Assembly: GCA_017533325.1 (NCBI GenBank)
Contig: JAFXIF010000044.1
Coordinates: 4,345 to 68,344 of the forward strand
Origin: Alphaproteobacteria bacterium
GTDB taxonomy: Bacteria; Pseudomonadota; Alphaproteobacteria; CAAHEQ01; UBA3637
DNA: 64,000 nucleotides
Reading direction: 5' to 3'
The notes under the pieces: generated by a model
Database searches by the model: none
What the model saw: the letters and a program-made list of their open reading frames with translations, nothing else
What the model was told of the DNA's origin: nothing
Position numbers and translations under genes: made by a program
Shown here: positions 2,987-56,788 of the stretch, in pieces
How positions within the stretch are numbered: the first letter of the stretch is position 1
Layout: each line of letters begins with the position of its first letter

Positions 2987-3451
2987 TTAAATAAGAGAAT
3001 GAATTGCTTTAGGAACATCTTGTTTCCATGAAAGGTCATGTAACTGAATTTTTTTTCGAATTAATGTTCCTGAAATTGGTAAAATATTGCGATCAAATTG
3101 TTTGATTTTGATTCCTTTTTTTTGAAATAAATCTCCATCCTGTCCATTTCCGCAATAATAAATATCAAAAGGGCAATGAACTGTATCTTTTACATAATCC
3201 ACCCATTTGGGAGGGTTATTAATATCCTTGATACCTCTAACAATTAATTTTTTTGAATGAATGGCATCAGAATATATTTTTTTAACCATTTTAAGCCGTT
3301 TTTCGAATGAATAGGGGTTTTTATTATCTGTTTTGTTAATCGAACCAATAAGAAGAATGACTTGATTGTTTTCTTGTAACATTGTATCTATAATTTTTTT
3401 GTGACCATTATGAAAAGGCTGTAAGCGCATTATAGTTAGAGCTGTTGTCAT
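2987..3451 (-). CDS. nadM: Nicotinamide/nicotinate mononucleotide adenylyltransferase (NadM-type cytidylyltransferase fold)
   Basis: 154 aa with HxGH nucleotidyltransferase motif (PFHNGHKKII) in an operon with pncA/pncB/nadE. Subfamily assignment is an inference. Confidence 0.65.
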   Translation of the reverse strand: MTTALTIMRLQPFHNGHKKIIDTMLQENNQVILLIGSINKTDNKNPYSFEKRLKMVKKIYSDAIHSKKLIVRGIKDINNPPKWVDYVKDTVHCPFDIYYCGNGQDGDLFQKKGIKIKQFDRNILPISGTLIRKKIQLHDLSWKQDVPKAIHSLI

Positions 3452-3453
3452 GG

Positions 3454-4068
3454 CTATCCTCTTTGGCGTTGTAGTTTTTTTAAAAATTCTAAACTTGTTG
3501 TCGTTTTTATTTGTCCTTTTAAAACGGCTTTTTTAAATGGTTCTTCTTGTAAAACTTCTTCTGTTTCTTTATAAATTCCTCTTGTTAAATCTGTTAAAAT
3601 TGTAACAGGCATATCTCTTTTGATCCAACCAAGAAGAGCCGCTTTATTGCAAAAATCAGAGGCCACACCACATAAAACAACTTCATCCGTATCTTGAATA
3701 ATCGGCTCATAAACAGCATCAATGCTGGCAGCCCACATGTCGTAAGTTGATTTTCTTAAATGTTGAATGGCTCTTATTTTTGTTGTGAGATTTCCTTTGT
3801 TGATGGCTAATAACCATCCGATAGTGCCCTTTTCGCAATGAAGTGGAAAGTTCTTTGCTTCTTCTGTTTGAAAATAAGTGTCTTTATAATGTGTATCATA
3901 AGTAACAATACCGTAAGCAAACGCATTTTGAGGCATTTTTTCAAAAAAGTTTTCAGCTCTTTGAATTAAAGAGGGATCACCTTTTTTGTTATCAAAAGTA
4001 AGCGCCCCGTTTGGAGCAACGAAATCATTTTGAAAATCAATAAGGTTTAAGGTAAGTTTCTTTTTCAT
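3454..4068 (-). CDS. pncA: Nicotinamidase / isochorismatase-family hydrolase
   Basis: 204 aa with an N-terminal DFQNDF motif typical of nicotinamidases. First gene of the minus-strand salvage operon. Confidence 0.75.
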   Translation of the reverse strand: MKKKLTLNLIDFQNDFVAPNGALTFDNKKGDPSLIQRAENFFEKMPQNAFAYGIVTYDTHYKDTYFQTEEAKNFPLHCEKGTIGWLLAINKGNLTTKIRAIQHLRKSTYDMWAASIDAVYEPIIQDTDEVVLCGVASDFCNKAALLGWIKRDMPVTILTDLTRGIYKETEEVLQEEPFKKAVLKGQIKTTTSLEFLKKLQRQRG

Positions 4069-4094: not shown

Positions 4095-4150
4095 TGTTAT
4101 TAACAATTTATTATTAACATAAAGATAAAAAGATGTCAAGAGATTTTTTA
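4095..4150 (-). promoter_or_regulatory. Promoter plus palindromic operator upstream of pncA (copy 1 of a conserved 56-nt element)
   Basis: Minus strand reads TTGACA (4139-4134), a 17-nt spacer, then TAATAA (4116-4111). Two TGTTATTAACA-type palindromes overlap the -10 and +1 regions. The element is nearly identical (4 mismatches in 56 nt) to 35121-35178. Confidence 0.5.
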
Positions 4151-4252: not shown

Positions 4253-5023
4253 ATGTTTATCAAAAAGGCAGAAAAAGCATTTTTAAAAACATACGATTCG
4301 TCTGTTTTTGAAAAATTATCAGTTACAACAGATTTGCTTGTTTTTAGTATTTCTGATTTAAAAACAAATAATTACAGAAAATTATCAAATAAAGTGATGA
4401 GTGTTTTTTTAGCGAATCGTGATCAATTCCCCTTTAAAGATTGTTGGAGTCTTCCAGGCGGTTTTGTTTCGCCAAAAGAAACATTAGAAGAAACGGCAAA
4501 ACGTGTTTTAAGAGAAAAAATACATGTGGATGATTTATATCTCGAACAATTATATACATTTGGTGAGGTTGAACGCGATCCGAGAATGAGGATTATTTCA
4601 GTCGCTTATATGGCGTTGGTTGAGAGATCAGATTTGCCTTATTCTCTTCAACAATCTGATAATTGGTTTAATATTTTTAGAGAAGATAATAAAATTATCT
4701 TGAGAAATGAAAAAGATTCAGGTGTGGAATTTGATTTAAATATGCCCTCGGTTTTAGCATTTGATCATCAAGAAATTATTAAAATTGGGTTAGAGCGATT
4801 AAAAAATAAAATTGAATATACTGATTTAGCTTTTCATCTTGTTCCAAATGAATTTACACTAACTGAGCTTCAAAATGTTTATGAATCTGTATTAGGTAAA
4901 AAACTTTTGGCTCCTGCTTTTAGGAGAAGTATCAAATCAAAAGTTATTCCAACCGGTAACATGACTTCCGGTAATGGACATAGGCCATCGGAATTATATT
5001 GTTATAAAAATAATGAAGCGTAA
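4253..5023 (+). CDS. nrtR: NrtR-like regulator (Nudix domain plus C-terminal winged-helix)
   Basis: 256 aa with Nudix signature region (LPGGFVSPKETLEETAKRVLREK) followed by ~100 aa of C-terminal extension. Divergent from the NAD salvage operon, as is typical for NrtR. Confidence 0.65.
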   Translation: MFIKKAEKAFLKTYDSSVFEKLSVTTDLLVFSISDLKTNNYRKLSNKVMSVFLANRDQFPFKDCWSLPGGFVSPKETLEETAKRVLREKIHVDDLYLEQLYTFGEVERDPRMRIISVAYMALVERSDLPYSLQQSDNWFNIFREDNKIILRNEKDSGVEFDLNMPSVLAFDHQEIIKIGLERLKNKIEYTDLAFHLVPNEFTLTELQNVYESVLGKKLLAPAFRRSIKSKVIPTGNMTSGNGHRPSELYCYKNNEA

Positions 5024-17863: not shown

Positions 17864-18038
17864 TATTATTATGTTGTATTGTTAAAAAATAATATAAATT
17901 CATCTTGACAAGATAAGATTTTTATAAAAACATATTGATATAATTAGGTTGATTTATTTTTGTTTTGTTGTCTATTTATCTGTATTTAAAAGAATTTTTA
18001 GTTAATTGATTTTTACTGGGAGTAAAGAAGGGTTTCAA

Positions 18039-18644
18039 ATGAGCGTATATCAAAATAAATTAGAGTTTGTTTATCACCCACTAAAACGGATATATGAAAT
18101 TTTTGCTATAATTATATCTTTTTTATATTCTGTTTGTTTTTTTATTTTTTCTTCATTATTTTCAAGTTTTGATTTTATATGGATTTTTCTAGGTTTAGGA
18201 TTTTTATCTGCTTCAGTATTTATGGGCATTAATTGTTTAAAAAAAGAAAATAAAATAGTTGTTACTAAAAAAAATATTGCGCGAGAAATAGTGACTCAAA
18301 GTAATTATAAAGTAATGAAAATAATTTCAACAAATATGAATAGGAAATGGGGTGTTTTATTAAAAGATGGATATTTGTTATATATGTTATTGATTCCATT
18401 ATTGTTCATTTTAATTCCTTTTATTTGCATGATAACTTTTGTGAGGTATTGCTTGCCTAAATCTTCATTAAAAAAATTACAAATAGATGATGTAATTGAT
18501 GTTCAATATAAACAATCTATATATGGAAAAATATTTAATTATGGCACAATTATTTTTGTTTGGAAGAATAAAAAAAGATATTTCTTAATGATTCAAAATC
18601 CACAAAAAGTTTGTGAAGAAATTAAATTATTTTTAAAAATATGA
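18039..18644 (+). CDS. Membrane protein with bacterial PH (bPH_2/YdbT-like) domain
   Basis: Two N-terminal TM segments, then a C-terminal segment (IYGKIFNYGTIIFVWKNKKRYFLMIQNPQKVCEEI) resembling bPH_2. Start set at ATG 18039 (GAAGGG RBS). Confidence 0.5.
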   Translation: MSVYQNKLEFVYHPLKRIYEIFAIIISFLYSVCFFIFSSLFSSFDFIWIFLGLGFLSASVFMGINCLKKENKIVVTKKNIAREIVTQSNYKVMKIISTNMNRKWGVLLKDGYLLYMLLIPLLFILIPFICMITFVRYCLPKSSLKKLQIDDVIDVQYKQSIYGKIFNYGTIIFVWKNKKRYFLMIQNPQKVCEEIKLFLKI

Positions 18645-18722
18645 TCTGTATATACAAATAGTTATCATTTTGTTGTTGATTTGGTATATTGTGTTAAATA
18701 TAGTATACTAAAGGAGCAAAAA

Positions 18723-19151
18723 ATGGCATATGACGTAAAAAAAGTTTCTGTTGTTTGTATTATTGAAAAAGATGGAAAGTATCTGTTTTTAAAAAGAAGC
18801 AACACGGGAAAAGGTGATGGTTTTTATATGTTGCCAGGAGGACATGTGGATGCAGGGGAATCTGTTTTGCATGCTGCAATTAGAGAGTTAAAAGAAGAAT
18901 TGGGAATTGATGTAAAAGAATCTGATTTAGAGTTTAAGCTTGTTGAACCAATTAAAACATATATCACATTTTTCTTTCGTGTTAAAAAATTTGATGGGAT
19001 ACTTCAAAATATGGAACCAGAAAAACATGGAGAAATGGTTTATTTGCCTATAGATGCGAAAGACATTCATCCTTTTTCTAGGCGTGAGTTAGAGTTAATA
19101 AAAAATGGTGTTTCTTTTTTGCCAAATGATGATGTGGATTTATCATCTTAA
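18723..19151 (+). CDS. NUDIX hydrolase
   Basis: Canonical Nudix box GGHVDAGESVLHAAIRELKEELGI. AAGGAG RBS before ATG 18723. Confidence 0.8.
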   Translation: MAYDVKKVSVVCIIEKDGKYLFLKRSNTGKGDGFYMLPGGHVDAGESVLHAAIRELKEELGIDVKESDLEFKLVEPIKTYITFFFRVKKFDGILQNMEPEKHGEMVYLPIDAKDIHPFSRRELELIKNGVSFLPNDDVDLSS

Positions 19152-30655: not shown

Positions 30656-30841
30656 ATGACAGATGCAGAAATCTTGAAAGCAAATGAAAATGAACGTCAA
30701 TCTGTTGAATGTTGGACAAGAGTTATGGGTTATTTCCGTCCATACAGTCATTTTAATAAAGGTAAAAAATCAGAATTTGAAGAAAGACAATGGTTTATTG
30801 AAGAAAAAGCCTGTTGTTCATGCGAAATCAAAGCCGCTTAA
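30656..30841 (+). CDS. Small ORF resembling the glycyl-radical C-terminal segment of anaerobic ribonucleotide reductase NrdD
   Basis: 61 aa with TRVMGYFRPYSHFNKGKKSEFEERQW, which fits the NrdD pattern R-V-x-G-Y…FN-x-GK-x-x-E…R. It has its own AGGAAG RBS and a downstream terminator. Confidence 0.35.
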   Translation: MTDAEILKANENERQSVECWTRVMGYFRPYSHFNKGKKSEFEERQWFIEEKACCSCEIKAA

Positions 30842-32767: not shown

Positions 32768-32800
32768 AAGAAACGGCACTTAGAAAAAGTGCCGTTTAAA
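32768..32800. terminator. Bidirectional terminator between alr and the recombinase gene
   Basis: AACGGCACT(tagaaaa)AGTGCCGTT. Confidence 0.6.
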
Positions 32801-32804
32801 GTTT

Positions 32805-33413
32805 TTAATAGCCTGCGTTTTTTAAATAGTTATATATTGTTTTAGAACTAACGCCTAATCTTTGAGCAATTTTTGTTTTGGCAAGGCCTTGTTTGTAAAG
32901 CAAGATAATCTCTCTTTCTTTTCCGTCGAGAATATGTTTTTTATTTTTTGAACCGGGGGTGCGACCAAGTCGTTTCCCTGTTGATTTTAATCTTGCCAAA
33001 GCTTCTTTTGTTCTTTGACTGATTAAATTTCTTTCAATTTCAGCAGAAAGGGAAAAAGCGAATGCTAAAACTTTACTTTGGATGTCGGATCCTAAACGGT
33101 AATCATCTTTAACAGTCCAAACTTTAATATTGCGCTGCATACAATAATTTAAAATAGTCATAACTTGAAAAAGATTTCGACCTAATCTTGAAATTTCAGT
33201 GCAAATTAAAATATCACCTGCTTTTAATTTTTTGATATATTTACCAAGTTTTCGAAATTCAACATCTTTTGTTCCGCTGACTGTTTCGCTTATCCAACCG
33301 GAAATTAAAATATTTTCTTTTTTTGCGAATTCAATAAGTTCAAATTCTTGATTTTTGTGAGTTTGCTTATCTGTGCTAACACGAATATATGCATAATTCA
33401 TATCCATCTCCAT
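32805..33413 (-). CDS. Serine recombinase (resolvase/invertase family)
   Basis: N-terminal catalytic YIRVSTDKQ with Ser nucleophile, plus a C-terminal HTH (KTKIAQRLGVSSKTIYNYL). The start could be ATG 33401 instead. Confidence 0.85.
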   Translation of the reverse strand: MEMDMNYAYIRVSTDKQTHKNQEFELIEFAKKENILISGWISETVSGTKDVEFRKLGKYIKKLKAGDILICTEISRLGRNLFQVMTILNYCMQRNIKVWTVKDDYRLGSDIQSKVLAFAFSLSAEIERNLISQRTKEALARLKSTGKRLGRTPGSKNKKHILDGKEREIILLYKQGLAKTKIAQRLGVSSKTIYNYLKNAGY

Positions 33414-33427
33414 TCATAATATGCATA

Positions 33428-33494
33428 AAAAAACCTAAACATTGTAAGTTTAGAAACAAAAAGTATGTAAAACTTAAAAAAAGCTTTACATACT
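33428..33494 (-). terminator. Tandem hairpin terminators between the radical-SAM gene and the recombinase gene
   Basis: 10-bp perfect inverted repeat AGTATGTAAA/TTTACATACT and 6-bp CTAAAC/GTTTAG, each followed by a T-run on the minus strand. Confidence 0.5.
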
Positions 33495-33535
33495 ATATTA
33501 TACCCTAAAAATTCATTATCCGGTTAAAAAAGATT

Positions 33536-34492
33536 TTATGCTGAAGCAATTAAGGCATTTCCGCATGTAATACGATCGCTATCTTCCTCATGACTGGGGA
33601 CAAAAACAATCACATCCCATCCTTTTTTGACAAGCGGTTGTTCAAATTCGCGGTATACGTCATAATCATCATAGCTTGTTGTCACATCAAATCCATTTTG
33701 AATGGCTGAATTTGTTTCATGAATAGGCGTGATCTTAACGATAAACATTTTGGGATCAAAAAGTTCTGTTAATCGGTCAGCATCCAAAATAGTATCTTTT
33801 GTAACGGCAAAATTAAGTGTATATTTTCTGCCGACAGGCTGAGGTAATTCTTTGGCTAAAGCAGAAATTTCTTCTAAGCTTAAACTGTTGGAATTAAACT
33901 GAGCCTCACGTTGAGCGTTATCGGTTGAATTAATTGAAAATTGAAGTCCGGCTTCTCCGTTATAATCAATATTTTTGATATTGCACCAATCTAATATAAA
34001 TTGTTTTAATTTTTTATTTTTCTTTGGAAGCATAGTGGAAACAACCGGATGAATTGTTTTGGCTGTGATATATTTTTTTGTTATATCGCGTAAATGATTT
34101 TTTGCAAATTCCAAAACATTTTCATTGAATGTCGGTTCACCCATTCTGGCAAAATGAACATTAAATCTGTCTGTGTTTTTTATTGTTTCATTTTTTAAAA
34201 TGGTTTCAATCTCAAAAGAGAGTTCTTCAACAGATGCATTTCCGAAAAATCCGAATTTTGGACAGTCACAGAATTGACATTTCATCGGGCACCCTTTTTG
34301 AGTGCTGATTGTTGCGACCCATTTTTTTGTTAAATCAACTTCTTTATGTTTAACGCCGTTAATTTCGGTATGTAACCCTAAAAAATCGGCTTTAATATTG
34401 TTTTCTTTACCATAATCGCCAACTGTTAAAAATTCTAAACGATGTTCGGTGTCAACATAAATTTTTCCGGTATGAGTGTGAACAATTTGCAT
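33536..34492 (-). CDS. Radical SAM enzyme, family unassigned
   Basis: 318 aa with CPMKCQFC (CxxxCxxC) at residues ~68-75 and a downstream GEP SAM-binding motif. No SPASM or other auxiliary Cys cluster. Confidence 0.75.
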   Translation of the reverse strand: MQIVHTHTGKIYVDTEHRLEFLTVGDYGKENNIKADFLGLHTEINGVKHKEVDLTKKWVATISTQKGCPMKCQFCDCPKFGFFGNASVEELSFEIETILKNETIKNTDRFNVHFARMGEPTFNENVLEFAKNHLRDITKKYITAKTIHPVVSTMLPKKNKKLKQFILDWCNIKNIDYNGEAGLQFSINSTDNAQREAQFNSNSLSLEEISALAKELPQPVGRKYTLNFAVTKDTILDADRLTELFDPKMFIVKITPIHETNSAIQNGFDVTTSYDDYDVYREFEQPLVKKGWDVIVFVPSHEEDSDRITCGNALIASA

Positions 34493-34549
34493 AATTTTCC
34501 TCCATAAATTGTTTTTGTTTTAAAAGTACATCATAATACACATATTTTG

Positions 34550-35104
34550 TCATTCATTTAGTTGAAAAAGGCCAAAAAGTGTTTCATTTGTTTTATCATC
34601 TTCAATATTTTCATCAATTAAATAAAGGTGATAAAATTCGCCGGCATTTTTTCTGCAAATAACAGCATAATTTTCGGGATATTGACCTGTGGATAACTTT
34701 TTTGCTGCTAAAGCAGTATCTTCTGCTTCTAATTCTTTAATATCAGGAAATTTTTCTTTTCTGTATTTAACAGTTTGTTTTAATGCTTGAATATGAGAAG
34801 TAATAGAATCGATTTTAGAGTCTTTGTTTTTTATAAATAATGAATGATGAATTGGAAGCGTAAGTGTATCTATCATTTTTATTTTATTACTCAAAGCATT
34901 TAAAGTTTCTTGAACCGGTCCCGCAATTTTGTTTTCAAGAGCCAAAACGCCATAATCAATTTCCTTGTTTAAAAGCGCGGTTACAACCTTTCTTGATGAA
35001 ATTAAAGGAATGAAACAAGGTGTTTTTATTTTATGAATTTTTGAAAATTTAAATGCAGCTTCTTCAGAATTTGAAAATAAATCACCTTGAAATCCGATTT
35101 TCAT
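34550..35104 (-). CDS. Stand-alone prephenate-dehydratase (PDT) catalytic-domain protein without ACT domain
   Basis: 184 aa aligning to the PDT domain (KIGFQGDLFSNSEEAA, DYGVLALENKIAGPV, LPIHHSLF, SHIQAL). Confidence 0.7.
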   Translation of the reverse strand: MKIGFQGDLFSNSEEAAFKFSKIHKIKTPCFIPLISSRKVVTALLNKEIDYGVLALENKIAGPVQETLNALSNKIKMIDTLTLPIHHSLFIKNKDSKIDSITSHIQALKQTVKYRKEKFPDIKELEAEDTALAAKKLSTGQYPENYAVICRKNAGEFYHLYLIDENIEDDKTNETLFGLFQLNE

Positions 35105-35120: not shown

Positions 35121-35178
35121 TGTTATTAATAATTTGTTATTAACATAAAGATAAAAAGATGTCAAGATGTTTTTTATT
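35121..35178 (-). promoter_or_regulatory. Promoter/operator copy 2 (near-identical to 4095-4150) upstream of the PDT-like / radical-SAM operon
   Basis: TGTTATTAATAATTTGTTATTAACATAAAGATAAAAAGATGTCAAGATGTTTTTTA. The minus strand gives TTGACA, a 17-nt spacer and TAATAA, with a perfect palindrome TGTTATTAACA. Confidence 0.5.
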
Positions 35179-35282
35179 AAAACAAACGGAATGCATTAAA
35201 TAAAAGAAAAAATCTTGACATTTTTAAAGAAATACAGGCATATTGAGAAGAGAATTTGATATAACATCATCAGAAAAGGGTA

Positions 35283-37251: not shown

Positions 37252-37326
37252 TGGCGACCCTAACGGGATTCGAACCCGTGTACCAACCTTGAGAGGGTTG
37301 TATCCTAACCACTAGATGATAGGGTC
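37252..37326 (-). tRNA. tRNA-Glu (anticodon CUC as read)
   Basis: Minus strand reads GACCCTATCATCTAGTGGTTAGGATACAACCCTCTCAAGGTTGGTACACGGGTTCGAATCCCGTTAGGGTCGCCA. Anticodon loop CTCTCAA. An upstream terminator hairpin lies on the same strand. Confidence 0.8.
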
Positions 37327-47354: not shown

Positions 47355-48344
47355 CTATGTGACTTCTGTCACCGCGCGGATATTTCCATCTCGGTTGATT
47401 TGAACGACTCTTAATTTTTCTTTCATTTCACGATAGGTTTTTTCTCTATCTGTTGTCGGATAAGAGTGTAAAATACGTCCGATAAAAGCTTTATAAGCCG
47501 CATCCGGGTTTTCGGCATGGATAGTGGCAAAACAGTTTTCATGACCTGAACCCATTAATTCCCATAATGCACCTGCGTTGGAAGTTGAAATTTCACCACC
47601 GATAATGGCATCAGGGGTAAAGCGAACGGCAAGGTCAATCACTTTTTTATAGTCAAAATTATTTGTAAGTTCCGTTCTTGGTAAGACAATATGAACTCGA
47701 TTTTTATGCGGCACAATAAGTTCGCGTGTATCTTCAATGGTTAAAATACGTTTATGTGGGTCCAAGACCTTAATTAAATTATTTAAAAAGGTTGTTTTAC
47801 CAGTTGCCGTTGCCCCGGAGATTAAAACATGGTCACCGCGTTTAATAGAAAGCATTAATCTTTCAAAAGGATCATCTGGGTCTTCAACTTGTTTTAATCT
47901 GTTCAGCGGACGTAATCTTTCGCCGACACTTAAACCAAAATCGCTCATTGAAATATTAACGTCTTCTTTATAAACACGAATCGCCATAGCGATACCGCCG
48001 GTTAAATCGTTGTTATCATACATAACGTTTCTGCCGGCAATTCCGGTAAAACGATGTCCGCCTGGGAGCGTTGCATAAACAGTTGGTGTCCCTTGTGTCG
48101 GGTCAAAAGCATAATCATAAGAATTGGCAATAATATACATGATATTATTTAAATATTCTCGTGTTAGTTTTGGATCTTCATAGTAGTGCCATGGATGTGC
48201 ATGACGCCCGCGTAAGCGTAACCAAATACCGCCGGGAGAATCAACCGCAACTTCCTCAACATTATCTTGATTATACCAATAGGAAAGTGGGCGTAGAGCC
48301 GATTCTAAAACCCTATAGGTATCTGCAATCGATAATTCTCCCAT
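47355..48344 (-). CDS. virB11: Type IV secretion ATPase VirB11
   Basis: 329 aa with Walker A ISGATATGKTT and VirB11/TrbB-like length. Last gene of the operon. Confidence 0.85.
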   Translation of the reverse strand: MGELSIADTYRVLESALRPLSYWYNQDNVEEVAVDSPGGIWLRLRGRHAHPWHYYEDPKLTREYLNNIMYIIANSYDYAFDPTQGTPTVYATLPGGHRFTGIAGRNVMYDNNDLTGGIAMAIRVYKEDVNISMSDFGLSVGERLRPLNRLKQVEDPDDPFERLMLSIKRGDHVLISGATATGKTTFLNNLIKVLDPHKRILTIEDTRELIVPHKNRVHIVLPRTELTNNFDYKKVIDLAVRFTPDAIIGGEISTSNAGALWELMGSGHENCFATIHAENPDAAYKAFIGRILHSYPTTDREKTYREMKEKLRVVQINRDGNIRAVTEVT

Positions 48345-48360
48345 TCTTTATCATCCTTTT

Positions 48361-51300
48361 TTAAAACAATCTGTCAGAGGAGCCTGTTTTTGGTAGAACA
48401 GGTGTTACTTTTCTTTCCTCTACAGGTTGTTTTTCAACGCTGTCCCCAGTATAAATCGGTTCATTTGAATCTTCGTCAGAAGAGCCATCTTCATTATTAT
48501 ATTTGTCAGATGGTTTATAGTATTTACTATCATCAACTTCAGAGTTTTCGTCCTCATTAGTTTCTTCGTCTGATTCTTCCTCTTCTTCTTCGGATTTTTC
48601 TTCTTTAGATTCCTTTCGCGTGTCAACCCAAGAAGACGTATCCGGTGTTTGTGCTTCAGTTGAAACTTCTTCAGCTTCTTGGATGTCATCTTCTTCAGAT
48701 CTTAACCATAAATCTTCATTCGGGAAGACGGTTAAGCGCGTGCCTGACGGAACATAAATAACAACAGGAATATTTGCGGAATCTTCGATAAGTTGATCAA
48801 AGATTGTTTGCATAGATTCAATGAAGTTTTCTCTGGCATCATTTGCAGCTTCAGTTTTAGATGAAGTAATCGTGTTGCCATACATATCTTGATACATATC
48901 ATCATTTGTTGCCATCATGTAGGAAATAGCTGATGTAACAACGCTGGTCATAATCGGTTTACCGAATTTTTTAACCAATTCATCATCAAGATAAGCTGCA
49001 ACACCACCACGTCCTTGAGCATCACCTGATGTCCCTTCAAAGGAGAAAGCTCCTCCATCAGGACGGATAAGTCTTTGCCATGTGATTTCAAGTTTTGCCG
49101 CGCGTTTATCATTGCCTTGTTCACCGGCAAATGTTCCAATCAATCTGGAACCGGCCGGAATGATGATATTTCTTCCTTTTTCAGAATAAATATGTCTTTC
49201 AACAATGGCTGTAACAGGCATATCGGCATATCTGGAATCGATAGATCTTGTTAAGACTGCCGGAATTGCTTTGTCTTTCAAAATCATACGAGACATATCA
49301 ACAGGATAAGAAGATACAATTTTATTTACACCGATTGATTTCCAGTCCGCATCAGCTTTTTTACGAGCCATTGCTTTAATTTTTGAATTTGGTGTAATCA
49401 ATCCTCTTGATGCCATGCCGGCTTTCATTCCTTCTCGTTTTTGAGAAAGAATTTCTTGCATTTGTTGAATTTGTTCCGGTGTCGGTTTCAATTTTTTATC
49501 TGCAAAATTCGGACGAATACGACCTTGATCGTCACCTTGAGTGCTTAAGGGGCGTCCATCTAAAGTCATTGGTCTGCCATCTTGCATAAAGCCGACAATT
49601 TCATTTTGGTCATCTAAAATAGAACCATCCGGTGTAACTTGATATAATTTATTTCCGAATGAAATACGGCGTGTTCCGGCTTGTCCGGCTCCTCCTTGTG
49701 CATTTCTTAATGCTTCTAATTCTTCTTCAGAAAGTCCTTTAATACCACATTTATCCAAGCGAAGATCAAGGCCTTTAATTTTACCCATATCATTACCATC
49801 TTTATCTTTCAATAATCCGTTTTCATGAATGGTTGCATAGATTTCGCCATTCAACCCGATAATGGAGCCGTTTGGCATAATAGAAGCAATTTTTTCATTT
49901 TGAAGATTTAAAACATCACAACCTGAAATTTTTCCGAATGTATTTCCGTTGGCATCTACAAGTAGTCCGCTTTCAATATCACTTGGTAATTCGCCGTTTT
50001 CGCCGAGTTGTCCGATAACATTGCCATTTTCATCAACAATGTCTCCGTTTGGTAAAACCTGAGCAATAAATTTTCCTTCTGCATCTTTGATAACACCCTC
50101 AGAAGATAATGTCCCTTTAATATTACCTTTTTCGTCAAACAATAACTCTTCGTCACGGGAAACATTACGACCGATGATTTCACCTTTTTCGTTAACAACG
50201 TTGCCATCTGCGCGTAATACACCGATTTTTTCTCCGTTTTTGTTTACAACGTCCCCATTTAATTTAATTCGGCCGATTGGTTTTCCGTCTTTACCTAAAA
50301 CAAGCCCGCGTTCATGTGTTGCACCGATAACTTCGCCGGTTTTATGATCAACAACAGAACCGTCATTTCGGCTACATCCGATATTGATTCCGTTAACATC
50401 AACCACAGTTGAGTCCGGCATTGTGCGTCCGATATATTTTCCTTCAGGCGACATAACGATACCATTTCTTGTTACGCGACCGATTTTTTCACCTGAAGCA
50501 TTAACCGCCCATTTATCCGGTAAAATACGGCCAACAACCGTTCCTTTTGCATCAATAACTTGACCATTAAAAGCAGCTTGACCGACAACTTTACAATCAT
50601 TTGTAATTAATGCAGAAGGGATTAAGGCCCCTGTAATTTTATAAGTTCCTTCTTTAACCGTTCCATTAACGGCAATTTTCCCTTTTAATCCTCCGTTTGG
50701 AGAAACAATTTGCCCATTATGAATCAATGTCCCCATGAAAGAACCATCTTGTGAAATGGCAGTATAGAACGGCAAAACTGCACCGGCTAACGGTTCATCT
50801 TTGCCTAAAATAGTTCCGTCATCCAAAATGCGTAATGTTTTGCTGTCTGTTGCATCCAAAATATCACCGGAAAGAGTTGTTCGACCCAAAACATCCCCGC
50901 GATATCCAAACGGTAATCCTTGTTGGACAAGGCCACCTTTTTGAGGCATTGTGTTATATAAAGAACGATCTTGGATATCCGCAACAGAACCATCACTAAG
51001 CGCTCTTCCCGTCATTTGATTTGCATTGCCGATAACAGCGCCATCTGCAGCAACAGTTCCAAGAATTTTTGCATCATCATCAACAGCTACACCAAATGGA
51101 GCTTTTCCACCAGCCCAAAGATTATCGGAGGTGAGTGCAAAACCAAGAGGTGTTTGAACGGCAATGTTTCTTTCATCTTGATTAAAGATGGTTGCAGCAG
51201 TTTGTGTTTGACCGATTAAAAGGCCTGATTTCCCGACAAAAGCAGAAACAGGTAACGTCATACCACGAATATTGCCTTTTTCATTATAAAGGGCTCTGAT

Positions 51301-54300
51301 ACCTGAAGTGGAAGATTCTTTTTTACCTCTTAAGAAAATTGTTCCACTTAAGCTTTCGCGACCAACCGTGTTTAATGCATTTGATACAGCCGGTCCTGAG
51401 TAAACAACATTTCCTTGGATTTGTTTAATTAAGTTTGTTGCAAATCCGTTTGTCATTACCGAACCGAGAGGTTTTGAATTTCCGATGGATAAAATACTTC
51501 CGTTTGTTGAAATGATTCCCATTGTTTTGGCCGTGCTGTTTTCCGCAACAAATAAATCTTTGTCAGCCAATCTGGCAATAAAGTTCCCATCTTTTGCAAC
51601 AGTTTGCGGTGCAATGACTAAACCTTTTACTTGTCCTTTCCCATCAATAGCTTCACCGTATTCATTGATGAGATAAGAAAATTGATTATTGTCACCATAT
51701 CCGACTGAATTTAATGGGATAAATGTGCCTGTTATATCTCCCTTTGCATTTGCAATTCGGTTGTCAGATAATACATGGCCTAATTGTGATTTTGAAAGTC
51801 CGATGCGTCCGTCAGATTGAAGCAGTCCGGCAAACTTTCCGTTATTATCCACAGCAATCCCTTGTGGCAAAACTCTTCCGATTACTTCATCCATGTTATT
51901 GTAAATATAGTCTGAAGCATAAAGATAACCGGTATCTTTTTCAGCTGTAATGGTGTTATTAATTGACATGTAGCCGAGTAATTTTCCATTTGGTTTAACT
52001 GCAATACCAGTTTTTACAAGATAACCGATTTGATTCCCGGCTTTATCCAGACCAATTCCATTTGACATTAATCTTCCGATAGATCTTGAATTTTTGCCGT
52101 ATAAATCTGCATCAAAACTTGTCCATCCAATTAATTCATTCTTTGTATCAACATAAACGCCGAATGGAATCATTCTTCCGATAACGCCTTCAGAATTGAT
52201 AACCAATCCAAATGGGGTTGCTTGTCCGGCAATATTCCCATTTTTATCCATTATAGCCCCTGTTACACTTGGATAACCGATTAATTCTTCCGGAGAAAAA
52301 GCAAGGCTTAAGCGTTTAAAAACACCCCCGATAATTTTTTCATCAGATGAAATGGCAATCCCGTTTGCAAGAATTTTGCCGATAACTGTTTTCTTTGGTG
52401 AAATCACTTCGCCTTTAGGTGTAACCGAGCCGATTTCTTTACCTAAAACAGATAAAACTTTTCCATGAGGCATTTCAAAACCGATTACTTTTCCGTCCTT
52501 ATCCGTAACGGTTTTATTTGCTCTGATTGCCCCGATAATATCTCCGTCAGCATTCTTTAATGTGCCATCAACACCCATAGTGCCAAGATAATTATTATCT
52601 AAATCAAGAAAGGCTGTTTTATCAGGAATGAGAGTTCCGATAATTTTTTGAGTTTCACCGCTTATAGCAGTTAAATTTGGTAAAACACGGGCAAATCTTT
52701 CTCCTTCTTGATTCAATGCAAATCCGATTTTTGAATTGTAACGACCAAGAATCATACCATCTTGAGAAACGATAACTCCATCAGGTGGGATAACACCTAA
52801 AAATTTTCCGTTTGATGCAGAAACAATACCATCTTGGTCAACAGTGCCGATTTCATTTCCGTGGGCGTCATAAACTTTATCACCCATAACGGTCCAACCG
52901 GTCGGATTTCCGTTATCATCTAAAACAACTCCGTTAGGTGTATTTTGATTTCCGGATCCGACAACAGTTCCCAAAATTTCTTTACCATTTAAAGAAATAA
53001 CAGATCCATCTTCTTGAAGACATCCGATAATCTTTCCTTTTAAATCCATAACTTTACCATCAAGGCGCACACGACCGATAACAACACCTTCATTGTTTTT
53101 GACAACACCTTTGATAGCTAAAGCACCGATAATTTTTCCATTGTTATCAACAACAGTTTTATCCGGTGTTATACAACCAAACGGTTCATTATTCGCATCT
53201 GTTAAATCACCACCAATTGTGACAAGCCCTAATAAACGACATCCGTCAGCAATGGCAGAGGCTCTTGGAACAACAACACCGATAATGCGGTTTTGATCAT
53301 TTCGAACATAACTGTCCGTCATCACTTTGCCAACTTGTTCAAGTGAATCGTTAATGGCAATCCCGTTTGGGAAAACAGACCCGACTTGTTGACACCCAAA
53401 TCCGATGACGCGACCTTTTGGTAAAACAGAACCCACAGTCTTTTTACCAGCTGTTACAGATCCGTCCGGATTGACACAACCGATAACTGCTCCTTGGGGA
53501 CCAACGGCTTTACCTTCTGAATTTATAAATCCGATTGGATTGCCTTTTTCATTAATAACAAGCCCTAATTGAATAGCGCCGCCAATGTCCGTGCCGTCAT
53601 TGTTAATAACGCTTCCGTCAATTAATGTTTTTCCGACAGTTTGATTATATGAATCACGAACTTCACCATTTTGCATGATTTTGCCGGTTAATTGACATCC
53701 CGGAGCAACGGCAACCCCTTGAGGAATAGTTCCGCCAATAAGATCATTTGTGCTATTCACAACTAATCCGTTTGGTTTAACCATACCGATAACATTATTT
53801 GCTGCATCCATAACTGAACCGTCCGGAACAATTCCACCGATAACGTTACCTGTTAAATCGGCAACCAAACCCCATGGTCTTAAAACCCCTACTACACGGT
53901 TATTCAAATTGGCAACGGCACCGTTTGAAAGCGGTTTACCGATAACGGCACCTTTTTCATTTACAATTGTTCCGTCTTTTAATAATTTTCCGATTACATT
54001 TCCTGTCATATCCATAACCGAAACAATTGGGATGGCAGCCCCTAAAACATTTAATTCGGTATCAACAATGGTGTCATCTCCTAACAACCGACCGAGTTTG
54101 TCCCCATTTTCGTTAATTACATCACCATTTGGAGCAATTTTTCCCATGACCTCATTTTTTAAGTTAAGAGGTAATTTTTCGGGAACGGCAATAGCAACGA
54201 TTTTACCGTCTTTGTTGATATATAATCCGTTTTCAGTTGGTTTTATGACTTCACCGTCAATAACAATGGAGCCGTCTTCACCAACCGGATGCAATTTTCC

Positions 54301-54984
54301 ATCTAATCCCATTGCATATTTTTGTTCTTTTTCAGCATCATCCTTTGAAACTGATTCGCAAATAACACAATCTTTTGAATCGGTTGATTGAGCTTTTACT
54401 TGAACGGTTGTTTTCTTTTCTCTGTCAGAAAAACCGGCGGCAGTTGCAGAATCTTCTTCCCATTGAATAGTCAAAACATTTTGGATTTGTCTTAAAGAAA
54501 CAGGATTCCATAAAACTTTAATCAAGCATTCTTGCCCACTTGCCAAAGATTCATTTTCTTTACAAGTTGTTTCCATTGAAAATCCGTCTTGTTGATTTTC
54601 AAGAAATGTTGCCCCCTTGTAAAGAACAGCTCCGTTTTCGGCAGTTAATTTAATCAGCGCTTCGACTTGTGAACCGATAACAACATTATTCATATCAATT
54701 TGTTCAGGGACAACTTTTAAAGTAACATCCCCTCTGGCAAATCCTTGAAATTGACCGCCTTGTTCGTCTTTTTGGGTTTGGTATTCATCACCCCAGTCAA
54801 TATTTGTTGTTGTGTCTTGAACGGGCGCTTTTTCAGAGATAAAGGAAAGCGCTACAAAAAATACAATAAGAAGAAACAAACCGCCGAATAAAAGTTTCCT
54901 GTTGCTTTTTTTTACATATTGCTCACTAGAGCTTAATCCTCTGTTTTCTTTCATTGCTAACCCATTTCTTTTCTGTCGGAACAA
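48361..54984 (-). CDS. virB10: Giant VirB10-family protein (CagY-like) with a ~1700-aa degenerate repeat region
   Basis: 2207 aa. N-terminal cytoplasmic segment and single TM, then >100 degenerate ~12-13-aa repeats (xDGxVxDxxGxxIGxV), a C-terminal VirB10/TrbI domain (IPAGSRLIGTFAGEQ…VVIYVPSGTRLTVF), and an acidic Ser/Glu/Asp tail. Confidence 0.7.
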   Translation of the reverse strand: MFRQKRNGLAMKENRGLSSSEQYVKKSNRKLLFGGLFLLIVFFVALSFISEKAPVQDTTTNIDWGDEYQTQKDEQGGQFQGFARGDVTLKVVPEQIDMNNVVIGSQVEALIKLTAENGAVLYKGATFLENQQDGFSMETTCKENESLASGQECLIKVLWNPVSLRQIQNVLTIQWEEDSATAAGFSDREKKTTVQVKAQSTDSKDCVICESVSKDDAEKEQKYAMGLDGKLHPVGEDGSIVIDGEVIKPTENGLYINKDGKIVAIAVPEKLPLNLKNEVMGKIAPNGDVINENGDKLGRLLGDDTIVDTELNVLGAAIPIVSVMDMTGNVIGKLLKDGTIVNEKGAVIGKPLSNGAVANLNNRVVGVLRPWGLVADLTGNVIGGIVPDGSVMDAANNVIGMVKPNGLVVNSTNDLIGGTIPQGVAVAPGCQLTGKIMQNGEVRDSYNQTVGKTLIDGSVINNDGTDIGGAIQLGLVINEKGNPIGFINSEGKAVGPQGAVIGCVNPDGSVTAGKKTVGSVLPKGRVIGFGCQQVGSVFPNGIAINDSLEQVGKVMTDSYVRNDQNRIIGVVVPRASAIADGCRLLGLVTIGGDLTDANNEPFGCITPDKTVVDNNGKIIGALAIKGVVKNNEGVVIGRVRLDGKVMDLKGKIIGCLQEDGSVISLNGKEILGTVVGSGNQNTPNGVVLDDNGNPTGWTVMGDKVYDAHGNEIGTVDQDGIVSASNGKFLGVIPPDGVIVSQDGMILGRYNSKIGFALNQEGERFARVLPNLTAISGETQKIIGTLIPDKTAFLDLDNNYLGTMGVDGTLKNADGDIIGAIRANKTVTDKDGKVIGFEMPHGKVLSVLGKEIGSVTPKGEVISPKKTVIGKILANGIAISSDEKIIGGVFKRLSLAFSPEELIGYPSVTGAIMDKNGNIAGQATPFGLVINSEGVIGRMIPFGVYVDTKNELIGWTSFDADLYGKNSRSIGRLMSNGIGLDKAGNQIGYLVKTGIAVKPNGKLLGYMSINNTITAEKDTGYLYASDYIYNNMDEVIGRVLPQGIAVDNNGKFAGLLQSDGRIGLSKSQLGHVLSDNRIANAKGDITGTFIPLNSVGYGDNNQFSYLINEYGEAIDGKGQVKGLVIAPQTVAKDGNFIARLADKDLFVAENSTAKTMGIISTNGSILSIGNSKPLGSVMTNGFATNLIKQIQGNVVYSGPAVSNALNTVGRESLSGTIFLRGKKESSTSGIRALYNEKGNIRGMTLPVSAFVGKSGLLIGQTQTAATIFNQDERNIAVQTPLGFALTSDNLWAGGKAPFGVAVDDDAKILGTVAADGAVIGNANQMTGRALSDGSVADIQDRSLYNTMPQKGGLVQQGLPFGYRGDVLGRTTLSGDILDATDSKTLRILDDGTILGKDEPLAGAVLPFYTAISQDGSFMGTLIHNGQIVSPNGGLKGKIAVNGTVKEGTYKITGALIPSALITNDCKVVGQAAFNGQVIDAKGTVVGRILPDKWAVNASGEKIGRVTRNGIVMSPEGKYIGRTMPDSTVVDVNGINIGCSRNDGSVVDHKTGEVIGATHERGLVLGKDGKPIGRIKLNGDVVNKNGEKIGVLRADGNVVNEKGEIIGRNVSRDEELLFDEKGNIKGTLSSEGVIKDAEGKFIAQVLPNGDIVDENGNVIGQLGENGELPSDIESGLLVDANGNTFGKISGCDVLNLQNEKIASIMPNGSIIGLNGEIYATIHENGLLKDKDGNDMGKIKGLDLRLDKCGIKGLSEEELEALRNAQGGAGQAGTRRISFGNKLYQVTPDGSILDDQNEIVGFMQDGRPMTLDGRPLSTQGDDQGRIRPNFADKKLKPTPEQIQQMQEILSQKREGMKAGMASRGLITPNSKIKAMARKKADADWKSIGVNKIVSSYPVDMSRMILKDKAIPAVLTRSIDSRYADMPVTAIVERHIYSEKGRNIIIPAGSRLIGTFAGEQGNDKRAAKLEITWQRLIRPDGGAFSFEGTSGDAQGRGGVAAYLDDELVKKFGKPIMTSVVTSAISYMMATNDDMYQDMYGNTITSSKTEAANDARENFIESMQTIFDQLIEDSANIPVVIYVPSGTRLTVFPNEDLWLRSEEDDIQEAEEVSTEAQTPDTSSWVDTRKESKEEKSEEEEEESDEETNEDENSEVDDSKYYKPSDKYNNEDGSSDEDSNEPIYTGDSVEKQPVEERKVTPVLPKTGSSDRLF

Positions 54985-55009
54985 ATATTTAAATGATTTT
55001 CAAAGAAGT

Positions 55010-56788
55010 TTATTGAACGCGAACAACTGAACATCCAAAGCCGCGACGGCCTAATCTTTTGCATAATTTGTCGGCCAAAGTGATATCCTTAATCGGACCG
55101 ACACGCAAACGGAATAATTCGCGCATATTACTGTCTGCTGTTGTATCAACAGAATAATATGGTTCATATCCTTTTAAAACATCAGAGTTCTTTTCAAGAA
55201 TTTTTTCCCAAATGCTTTCAAGTTCTGTAATGTCAGCGTGTGTGCCAAGTTCAATCGAAATGGTTTCGCTTGTTGCCAAACCGGAATTTCTTTGAGTTGA
55301 AATCGGCATTTGACTCATAACCCCAACAATACCTGCAGAGGCTTGAGGTGAATTCATAACATTTGCCGGAATAGATTGGATTGGAGCCATATCGCCAGAA
55401 TAAATTGATCCGCCTTGCGGTGCATATTGAGGAATATAGTTTCCTGCATAGGAATCATAAATCATTCCTTGAGGATACATATTGTTTGATTGTTGCGTAT
55501 ATGAATTTTGTTGATAAGAATTCATCATTTTTGGTGTTGGAGCTAACGGACTTCTTTCAACAATTTTTTCGCTTTCTGTTTCACTCATTGCAGTCGGATC
55601 ATAAGCCGGAGCATCTTGGCTCATAACACTCGGGCGACCTGTATAAGGTGAAACAGTCATATTTTCAGCACCACTGTAATCTGTATATTCAAGACCGGCG
55701 CTTGGATCTCTTCTGAGTTTTAAGCAAATAAGTTTTTTGCCGTTTCTTAAAACCAAATCACCAATAGCTTCAACAACAATTAAACGACTGTTTGGCCCGG
55801 TTGTTCTAAATCCGACCGGAACTTCCGTATCTTGAACCAAAAGGCTGACCACCGGACGTTGTGTCATCGTTAATGCTTTCGGGCCCAAGTCAATGTATGT
55901 GAAAATATTATCGCGCCATACATTATCCGGAGCAATATCAACATCAGATGGATTTGGAATATAAATATCTATGTCAAAACGAATGTTTTCAGGGTCAACC
56001 GGAATGCTTTGCAACCAGTTTTTAGGGCCGGTTGAAGCTGTATTAATGCCTAATTGCGGATTTTGTCCGCCACTTCTACCGATTGCCCAACCGGGAGCTT
56101 TGTTGGAATTTAAAAATCCGTTACCGACAGCTCTGTTTGTGGCGCCGTTCATTCCGCCTAAACGTCCACCATTTTCAACCGGTGTATATCTCGGGCCAAC
56201 TAACACGTCAACAACAGATTGTGAAATTTTTTCGGCATTGTAAGTTTCGCTTCTTAAATAGAAAACATATCGGTTGCCGGATCTACCAAAAATAATCATA
56301 TTACTGTCAACCCCGATATAAGAGGGATCAGCATATAAAAGAAGAGAGTTTGGTGCGGCAATTTCACCACCAAATGATTCCGGAGAACCGATATGAACTT
56401 TTTCAATTAATTCCCATGTCGGTAAGTTGATAAGTGTCATCATACCTTCTCTTAAACGAATGGGTAAAATCACATCAGGTGACCAAGCGTATTTTGAATA
56501 CCCCGGTTTTGATTGACCTTCACCTAAATGTGCCATCGGATCGTTCCATGCTTTTTGTTGCATGCCGAGTGAATGTAAGTAATTTGGGTTAACAGATTCA
56601 TAATCGCCGTTTGTTTGAGCGATAGCGTCGCTTAAACGTTCACTTTCAGCATCTGTAGGCAACCCCTCTGAATGTGCAACAACAGAAAATAAAACAAAAA
56701 TAGCAGCCGTTGACAGCCAACCTTGTCTGTGAAGTTTTTGTTTGAACATAGAATCTCTCCTCTTTATTTTTGTAATATATTTACACAA
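55010..56788 (-). CDS. virB9: VirB9-like (CagX-like) T4SS protein with a C-terminal SPOR-like peptidoglycan-binding domain
   Basis: 592 aa with a signal peptide. Sits between virB8 and virB10. The C-terminal 70 aa (FRLRVGPIKDITLADKLCKRLGRRGFGCSVVRV) resembles a SPOR domain, preceded by a Q/Y/P-rich linker. The VirB9 call rests mainly on position and size. Confidence 0.5.
   Translation of the reverse strand: MCKYITKIKRRDSMFKQKLHRQGWLSTAAIFVLFSVVAHSEGLPTDAESERLSDAIAQTNGDYESVNPNYLHSLGMQQKAWNDPMAHLGEGQSKPGYSKYAWSPDVILPIRLREGMMTLINLPTWELIEKVHIGSPESFGGEIAAPNSLLLYADPSYIGVDSNMIIFGRSGNRYVFYLRSETYNAEKISQSVVDVLVGPRYTPVENGGRLGGMNGATNRAVGNGFLNSNKAPGWAIGRSGGQNPQLGINTASTGPKNWLQSIPVDPENIRFDIDIYIPNPSDVDIAPDNVWRDNIFTYIDLGPKALTMTQRPVVSLLVQDTEVPVGFRTTGPNSRLIVVEAIGDLVLRNGKKLICLKLRRDPSAGLEYTDYSGAENMTVSPYTGRPSVMSQDAPAYDPTAMSETESEKIVERSPLAPTPKMMNSYQQNSYTQQSNNMYPQGMIYDSYAGNYIPQYAPQGGSIYSGDMAPIQSIPANVMNSPQASAGIVGVMSQMPISTQRNSGLATSETISIELGTHADITELESIWEKILEKNSDVLKGYEPYYSVDTTADSNMRELFRLRVGPIKDITLADKLCKRLGRRGFGCSVVRVQ

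Follow-up and report, generated by a model that had tools for sequence, protein, structure and literature searches.

Does a radical S-adenosylmethionine (SAM) enzyme that lies beside a prephenate dehydratase (PDT) protein and a serine recombinase form a pathway, or a mobile cassette, together with these neighbours? The question is raised by a locus in 64,000 nucleotides of an alphaproteobacterial genome (GenBank assembly GCA_017533325.1, contig JAFXIF010000044.1, positions 4,345 to 68,344), hereafter called the window. Three genes are encoded on the minus strand: a PDT-domain protein of 184 aa (34550..35104), a radical-SAM protein of 318 aa (33536..34492), hereafter rSAM, and a small serine recombinase of 202 aa (32805..33413). 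An earlier reading of this DNA, the sequence-only reading, called these three open reading frames (ORFs) correctly; it also took the first two for a pathway unit under a promoter shared with the nicotinamide adenine dinucleotide (NAD) regulon, and the whole for a possibly mobile or invertible cassette. The explanation that we favour, and to which we give slightly better than an even chance, is that the rSAM is an NAD-linked, RlmN-like enzyme of phage origin and not part of a PDT pathway unit. The signal which recurs across lineages is the NAD link, as distinct from the weak inferences of a PDT pathway and of a mobile cassette.

The rSAM carries the cluster motif C68-x3-C72-x2-C75 (CPMKCQFC) and MGEP at residues 117-120. 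In an alignment of 37 family sequences C68 and C75 are invariant and C72 is present in at least 90%. A motif and domain search found no second cluster motif and no auxiliary-cluster domain, in agreement with what had been read from the sequence. Against Pfam PF04055 the score is 27.5 bits with a cutoff of 29.5, and the protein is placed in the radical SAM superfamily because its fold and its profile match RlmN/Cfr. An AlphaFold (AF2) model built from the 37-sequence alignment has a pLDDT of 92.6, and when it was compared to solved structures with Foldseek the top 10 matches were all RlmN-type (E 1e-9 to 4e-7, TM 0.54-0.67), the best being RlmN 5hr7 and 6fz6 (TM 0.61-0.67). When the family profile is compared with RlmN/Cfr, the match spans the entire catalytic domain (E about 1e-19). 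The top match in a library of viral structures is a phage protein that bears the annotation COG0820, the COG of RlmN.

The fold is thus common to the rSAM and the class A radical-SAM methyltransferases RlmN and Cfr (PDB 3rfa, 5hr7, 6fz6, 9p0p), and so is the position of the CxxxCxxC motif within an S-(T/S)-Q-x-G-C context. With RlmN the rSAM also has in common a C-terminal C-G-(Q/N)-L loop, which in RlmN bears methyl-Cys355; the family consensus eeIgsNCGQl (TCGN with C310 in the window protein) aligns with RlmN DDIDAACGQL, i.e., with Cys355, and this cysteine is present in most, not all, members of the family. However, on the RlmN/Cfr models of NCBIfam the rSAM reaches only 18-35 bits where the cutoffs are 290-633 (TIGR00048 34.6 vs. 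290; Cfr models 24-27 vs. 468-550), roughly a tenth of what the equivalog cutoffs require. RlmN Cys118 is also missing: where it would stand, seven residues ahead of the cluster motif, the family consensus has a hydrophobic residue and the window protein Ala/Thr (WVATISTQKGC). The alignments with RlmN begin at RlmN residue 83-116, and because they start only at about residue 83 the N-terminal RNA-binding domain of RlmN has no counterpart in the rSAM; in the model, beta strands without an equivalent make up residues 1-55. Unlike RlmN and Cfr, members of the rSAM family stand alone in phages, lie inside NAD salvage operons, and are fused to membrane and hydrolase domains. The protein matches phrog_24834 from end to end (E 1e-104), and no curated family fits it in NCBIfam, Pfam or PADLOC, so the earlier description of a radical-SAM protein of unclear family was apt. 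The rSAM belongs to an RlmN/Cfr-like radical-SAM family (PHROG 24834) and is neither RlmN nor Cfr. Membership of the locus in a defence system was considered and dismissed, the PADLOC matches being noise only. Our literature search found no paper on the family, also when it was combined with NARP1, NrtR, pncA, DUF5662 or phage-encoded RlmN.

The link to NAD in the window comes from the promoter. The PDT and rSAM genes are separated by 57 nt with no terminator-like site in the gap, which agrees with the co-transcription assumed earlier. Their promoter (35137..35168, minus strand) has a -35 sequence TTGACA (35165-35160) and a TGT-TAATAA extended -10, and a putative NrtR operator, the 23-bp imperfect palindrome GTTAATAACAAATTATTAATAAC (35122..35144, minus strand), overlaps the -10 and the transcription start. 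A second copy of the operator with 2-3 mismatches is found at 4096..4118 in the promoter of the pncA-nadD-like-pncB-nadE operon. The pncA (4096-4142) and PDT promoters have in common a block of ~50 bp made up of TTGACA, 14 nt, TGT-TAATAA and the overlapping palindrome, which in its shared form reads GTTAATAA(C/T)AAATT(A/G)TTAATAAC. A search of the window for the operator with up to 3 mismatches returned these two sites only, compared to 0.01 expected by chance. The salvage set in the window is complete: its operon lies on the minus strand and encodes, as identified with Pfam, PncA (3454-4068), a 154-aa NMNAT/NadD-like protein (2987-3451), PncB (1504-2970) and NadE (721-1488), with PnuC on the plus strand at 162-737. 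The gene for NrtR, the presumed repressor of both promoters (NUDIX plus NrtR winged helix; PF21906 64 bits, PF00293), is divergent from the operon at 4253..5023 on the plus strand. The shared NAD-regulon promoter is therefore borne out by the recurrence of the block and by the presence of the NrtR gene and the salvage operon in the same window: the PDT-rSAM genes carry a near-identical copy of the pncA-nadD-pncB-nadE promoter and operator.

The same promoter is found in relatives of the window, which are cited here by their L numbers. Upstream of PDT, L030 and L057 carry the operator unchanged and L031 carries it with 4 mismatches; the promoter/operator block hardly varies in all three while the flanks have diverged and the PDT proteins are 66-72% identical, from which it follows that the block is under selection. 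It is absent upstream in L020, L032 and L110. It should be noted that a 25-nt inverted repeat in the window (35155-35225) holds two divergent ATCTTGACA -35 regions, for an AI-2E-family transporter gene and for PDT, and that the transporter-side element is kept in L030, L031 and L057. A further ATCTTGACA promoter-like site is present at 17902-19151 (plus strand) upstream of a 212-aa ORF, which has no family match, and a NUDIX hydrolase gene; an NrtR-type operator is absent there.

Outside the window the family was inspected in the best 80 loci of each collection, i.e., the best 80 of at least ~600 genome loci and the best 80 of 367 viral loci, with neighbourhoods scored by a crude ORF caller of our own and a BLAST panel. 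In a sister clade the rSAM gene lies within an operon PncB-PncA-rSAM-NadE-DUF5662-NrtR at eight loci (L003/4, L012/13, L034, L035, L036, L063), although NadE was not detected in L035. In a group of Vibrio phages a Prs-like gene and a Nampt-like gene are followed by the rSAM, and these two are exactly the Pfam families by which NARP1 (Adps/Namat) is defined (bioRxiv 10.1101/2024.02.11.579819). In a gut phage contig (L119) the rSAM comes after Nampt, NadE and a 98-aa ORF, in that order, and a Woesearchaeota metagenome-assembled genome (MAG; L060) has rSAM, an NMNAT-like gene and NrtR. The rSAM is thereby placed in phages much as the accessory genes of NAD+ reconstitution are (NARP1 Adps/Namat, and RyDEP in a NARP1 locus), beside NARP1-type or Nampt/NadE genes, and its bacterial copies are in NAD salvage operons. 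It differs from them in that most of its phage copies have no NAD genes nearby, and that a radical-SAM class is not reported for the NARP1 and RyDEP loci (bioRxiv 10.1101/2024.02.11.579819 and 10.64898/2026.05.28.727677). A radical-SAM enzyme is repeatedly joining NAD gene sets, and we found no described NAD pathway that includes one.

The DUF5662 gene of the sister-clade operon (157 aa; L012 7752-8225) takes roughly the slot of the window's NMNAT/NadD-like gene, and may be a non-orthologous replacement in NAD salvage. DUF5662 is also found 2 kb from the rSAM in another context (L023 4264-4800). No paper on DUF5662 was found in the literature.

Fusions give a second kind of evidence on the substrate. 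Relatives of the rSAM are fused to an energy-coupling factor (ECF) S-component/QueT-like membrane domain, to a methylthioadenosine/S-adenosylhomocysteine (MTA/SAH) nucleosidase, to an isochorismatase-family hydrolase and to a TrxR-like flavoprotein, and these partners point to an imported small molecule. MTA/SAH nucleosidase also removes 5'-deoxyadenosine. One such arrangement is an 814-aa fusion of a QueT-like ECF S-component, rSAM and MTA/SAH nucleosidase in a Bacilli MAG (L114 7001-9445); the gene is monocistronic and no riboswitch was detected upstream of it.

A distant branch, 31-37% identical to the window protein, has a strongly conserved operon of an isochorismatase-like hydrolase, a TrxR-like flavoprotein and the rSAM in taxa which include Bacteroidales, Elusimicrobia, Aminicenantes, Thermotogae, Bdellovibrio, Heimdallarchaeota and Micrarchaeota. 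The three genes (L068-L109, e.g., L080 6343-8807 and L101 6342-8831) occur also as gene fusions, and the hydrolase has an N-terminal extension. No curated family or paper was found for this operon. The flavoprotein was considered as a disulfide reductase of a Cys pair, which could be ruled out since CxxC is absent in 30 of 35 sequences and in the remaining five lies elsewhere than in the TrxR active site; a role in passing electrons to the cluster is more likely. The hydrolase keeps the Asp-Lys-Cys triad, but a role as nicotinamidase is not supported, the D-x-H metal site of PncA being absent.

The rSAM family is mainly carried by gut phages. In IMG/VR 367 viral contigs encode a relative; the best 80 of these are 69-78% identical, and most of their contigs measure 30-270 kb. 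Among isolated phages, Bacteroides phage Versailles has a relative with 53% identity, and Vibrio, Pectobacterium, Stenotrophomonas, Aeromonas, Salmonella and Moorella phages have relatives at ~27%. The homologue in Stenotrophomonas phage BUCTxx99 (L017 3911-4870) is annotated "prohibitin family protein", probably a misannotation. Copies which are 75-81% identical are found in MAGs assigned to Bacilli, Clostridia, Oscillospiraceae, Lachnospiraceae and Muribaculaceae, and many of these loci have the look of prophages. The rSAM of L020 shares 89% identity with that of the window, compared to 73% for RNase E, 74% for Alr and 54% for PDT. In a neighbour-joining tree, which carries no support values, all alphaproteobacterial proteins fall into a single clade that lies within a group of viral and Firmicutes sequences. 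One acquisition is most likely, and the tree agrees with later relocation within the lineage.

Whether the PDT belongs with the rSAM can be judged at the chromosomal site itself. Contigs which share the flanks of the window (RNase E 72-81% identical, Alr 74-87%) carry the three genes in differing combinations. The order PDT, rSAM, recombinase is found in the window, L030 and L031; L057 has PDT and rSAM and its contig stops within the rSAM gene; L020/21 and L032 have PDT and rSAM without the recombinase; L009-11 have recombinase and rSAM without PDT; and L110 has PDT and recombinase without rSAM. PDT next to rSAM is therefore a matter of synteny in one lineage, in which both genes are dispensable. 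The pairing is confined to this syntenic locus of one alphaproteobacterial lineage (window, L020/21, L030, L031, L032 and L057), and a PDT neighbour was found at none of ~130 other loci of the family (~50 genome and 80 viral). At this variable chromosomal spot the three genes can occur apart and do not make up one cassette, and the pathway unit that had been postulated for PDT and rSAM is not upheld: PDT is a resident gene between the promoter and the rSAM and not its obligate partner. It had been anticipated that the rSAM might turn out to be a housekeeping enzyme with no conserved linkage to PDT genes. The linkage is indeed absent, but the enzyme, RlmN/Cfr-like in fold, falls into neither of these two families.

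The PDT protein scores 131 bits on PF00800 (cutoff 25.2), aligned from profile position 1 to 177 of 181. Of the 284 positions of the NCBIfam PDT equivalog only 2-181 are aligned (104 bits, cutoff 219), from which it follows that the ACT domain is absent; the protein stops where the PDT domain stops, as the sequence-only reading had it. The motifs ENxxxG, SHxQAL and DTAxAA are kept, and the canonical active-site motif TRF is TLF in the window protein (NETLF), i.e., Thr and Phe are kept and Arg is replaced. There are 116 homologues of this kind, 40-73% identical to the window PDT, Lachnospiraceae and anaerobic fungi included; all of them end N-x-T-[T/E/L]-F instead of TRF, and one UniProt entry among them is named "monofunctional prephenate dehydratase". 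These ~185-aa proteins of gut anaerobes are a separate family, and their neighbours, where looked at, were unrelated. The window PDT is like these PF00800-only proteins of gut and rumen anaerobes and anaerobic fungi both in identity and in its N-x-T-[T/E/L]-F end, but only in the window's clade is such a PDT seen with an NrtR-type promoter and co-transcribed with an rSAM.

The recombinase has a Resolvase domain (PF00239, 108 bits) and HTH_7, and scores 287.4 bits on NF009949, the "master DNA invertase Mpi family" (cutoff 272). It is thus similar to Mpi of Bacteroides fragilis in size, in its Resolvase plus HTH architecture and in its above-cutoff score. It differs in that the host is alphaproteobacterial, that the target consensus is not enriched and that inverted repeats like those of an invertible promoter were not found in the 64 kb. 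For the Mpi consensus ARACGTWCGT 9 matches were counted in the window compared to 8.9 expected. Flanking direct or inverted repeats were found neither within 30-38 kb nor in the whole window, nor were convincing inverted-repeat pairs within 1.2 kb. A palindrome CTAAAC-N7-GTTTAG (33435..33453), placed just upstream of the ribosome-binding site of the recombinase, has no second copy in the window; similar palindromes precede the recombinase gene in L030, L031, L009 and L110, and it may be a recombinase-binding or attenuator site. The suggestion of a mobile or invertible cassette is therefore not substantiated, and an invertible or excisable element was discarded as a candidate because the searches for repeats, for the Mpi consensus and for a partner of the palindrome were all empty. 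A terminator-like hairpin with a 14-bp stem followed by a T run lies 3' of the rSAM (33462..33494, minus strand), ahead of the recombinase gene, and a bidirectional terminator common to this gene and alr was located by a hairpin and T-run search at 32771..32797. The recombinase had been credited with its own terminators, which is right, and it is predicted to be transcribed independently of PDT-rSAM. It is facultative at the locus and in relatives is found on either side of rSAM or beside PDT.

The mechanism that we propose starts with repression. PDT-rSAM would be transcribed from a duplicate of the pncA-nadD-pncB-nadE promoter, the operator overlapping the -10, and NrtR presumably represses both promoters. 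Repression by NrtR is released when ADP-ribose accumulates, and by analogy ADP-ribose signalling NAD consumption would lift it here. The rSAM would then reductively cleave SAM at its CxxxCxxC cluster and probably act on a small NAD-related molecule, not on rRNA. We propose tentatively that the rSAM fills a gap among the enzymes of NAD+ homeostasis and phage counter-defence, with a pyridine or ADP-ribose-type small molecule as its substrate. The chemistry that we prefer, an RlmN-type addition of a Cys310-borne methyl group to an electron-poor ring carbon, is more doubtful still.

Several observations weigh against this explanation. No NAD gene was found within 6 kb at 79 of the best 80 viral rSAM loci, and when the ORFs of the 80 IMG/VR loci were clustered no neighbour family occurred in more than 21 of them, these all being of one phage lineage. 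In phages the rSAM acts by itself, and the NAD link is carried by a few independent cases. Binding of the putative NrtR to the 23-bp operator, and its release by ADP-ribose, are predicted only. A full RlmN methylation cycle is doubtful because the equivalent of Cys118 is missing. The operon of the distant branch need not concern nicotinamide since its hydrolase is without the D-x-H site of PncA. Finally, an RNA substrate can be envisaged because the rSAM is RlmN-like, and the homologue of phage BUCTxx99 lies amid a cluster of more than 10 tRNA genes.

These last points belong to the rival according to which the rSAM is a divergent RlmN/Cfr methylating tRNA or rRNA, used by phages on host or phage RNAs, its linkage to NAD being regulatory or incidental. 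We regard this as unlikely. It would explain the best structural and profile matches, which are to RlmN/Cfr across the catalytic domain with the Cys355-type loop included, the tRNA cluster around the BUCTxx99 gene and the stand-alone position in most phages. However, it has to accommodate a score far under the equivalog cutoffs (34.6 against 290), an RlmN N-terminal domain with no counterpart and a Cys118 that is not conserved, and the ECF-S-like and isochorismatase fusions together with the repeated placement in NAD operons suit a small molecule better. A small molecule of another kind is assumed when the rSAM is taken to salvage a 7-deazapurine, a queuosine precursor, as a non-orthologous analogue of the queuine lyase QueL. 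A missing QueL analogue is under discussion for streptococci (PMC12632869), and relatives of the rSAM with about 40-44% identity carry a fused membrane domain, which in two of them (P0129, P0133) passes Pfam QueT (37-40 bits vs. 33.7). Like QueL (C. difficile CD1682-84 operon; PDB 6p78) the rSAM is a radical-SAM protein of gut bacteria, and the fusion of some relatives to an ECF S-component-like domain suggests by analogy the salvage of an imported micronutrient. But QueL is a protein of 230 residues whose homology to the rSAM is limited to the generic radical-SAM core: 6p78 ranks only 34th in the fold search (TM 0.40, E 0.017), which already says that the rSAM is not QueL, and there is no sequence match at E up to 1. 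A preQ1 riboswitch is absent upstream of the fusion gene and in the window, and with these results QueL itself was rejected as the identity of the rSAM. No tgt, queK or other queuosine gene was found among the neighbours annotated by Pfam or in their records (the BLAST panel held no queuosine genes), and other fusions match RibU/ECF models equally weakly. Such an analogue is thus highly improbable.

The two remaining rivals give the neighbours a larger part. In one of them the PDT-fold enzyme would act on a prephenate- or chorismate-type ring, which the rSAM would then remodel into a pyridine or aromatic precursor feeding NAD synthesis. The NAD-type promoter which drives both genes in the window, L030, L031 and L057 speaks for such a two-enzyme unit, as does the retention of the pair at PDT identities down to 54-72%, and the distant branch pairs its rSAM with an isochorismatase-family hydrolase, a fold known also from chorismate-derived chemistry. 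The pair is, however, tied to one syntenic locus in one lineage, each gene is retained without the other (rSAM in L009, PDT in L110), and in L020 and L032 the NAD operator is absent from the pair; moreover, PDT is near rSAM in none of the ~130 other loci, phages included, and the ACT-less PDTs are a separate family with unrelated neighbours. We consider the two-enzyme unit quite unlikely. The other rival sees rSAM and recombinase as a phage-derived selfish or counter-defence cassette, mobile or invertible and with no metabolic role in the host. The family is overwhelmingly phage-borne, alphaproteobacterial copies occur also in island-like contexts near integrases, RhuM, Bro-N and restriction-modification genes, the recombinase changes sides in relatives, and the locus follows a tRNA gene. 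All this would fit, but flanking repeats and a second recombinase-proximal palindrome were not found in the 64 kb, at the same site the rSAM stands without a recombinase in L020 and L032 and the recombinase without an rSAM in L110, a host NAD-regulon promoter conserved across species lies upstream of the rSAM, and the GC content is not atypical. We find this cassette improbable.

If the tentative proposal of a missing enzyme in NAD+ homeostasis and counter-defence is true, the rSAM might recover a salvageable base from a hydrolase-resistant form, or it might C-methylate nicotinamide or NAD. It would add an accessory of a new type to the NARP and Pnc pathways, and the hydrolase/flavoprotein/rSAM operon of the distant branch would be an ancient version of the same chemistry. 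The depletion and reconstitution of NAD+ is a central front in the conflict between phages and bacteria, and niacin-auxotrophic gut bacteria depend on NAD salvage. The enzyme class is known (class A, RlmN/Cfr-like radical SAM); what sets this family apart is its connection to NAD homeostasis in gut bacteria and phages. The rSAM is a concrete candidate for a new reaction because of its abundance in gut phages, the promoter and operator it shares with the pncA operon in one lineage, and its fusion to a vitamin-transporter-like domain.

The window comes from an ordinary stretch of chromosome in a low-GC gut alphaproteobacterium of the Candidatus Enterousia type. Its genes include those for IleRS, Rho, MipZ, HtpG, AmiC, PGM, RNase E, Alr and a type IV secretion cluster, and the nearest public relatives among the matches listed are MAGs that carry the label Alphaproteobacteria or Candidatus Enterousia. 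The variable locus is bounded upstream by tRNA-Glu (37252..37326, minus strand), the layout being RNase E, tRNA, variable genes and alr, which is repeated in L009. On the plus strand at 30656-30841 a stand-alone ORF of 61 aa matches only the extreme C-terminus of NrdD (PF13597 positions 530-561 of 562, 32 bits vs. a cutoff of 26.2). Its tail is rich in Cys, it has an RVMGYFRP motif which in our own reading resembles the glycyl-radical site of NrdD, and it is kept as a separate gene in L020 and L110. The type IV secretion genes (47355-56788, minus strand) encode VirB11-like, CagX/VirB9-like and TrbI/VirB10-like proteins, the last of these being 2207 aa long with beta-flower repeat domains.

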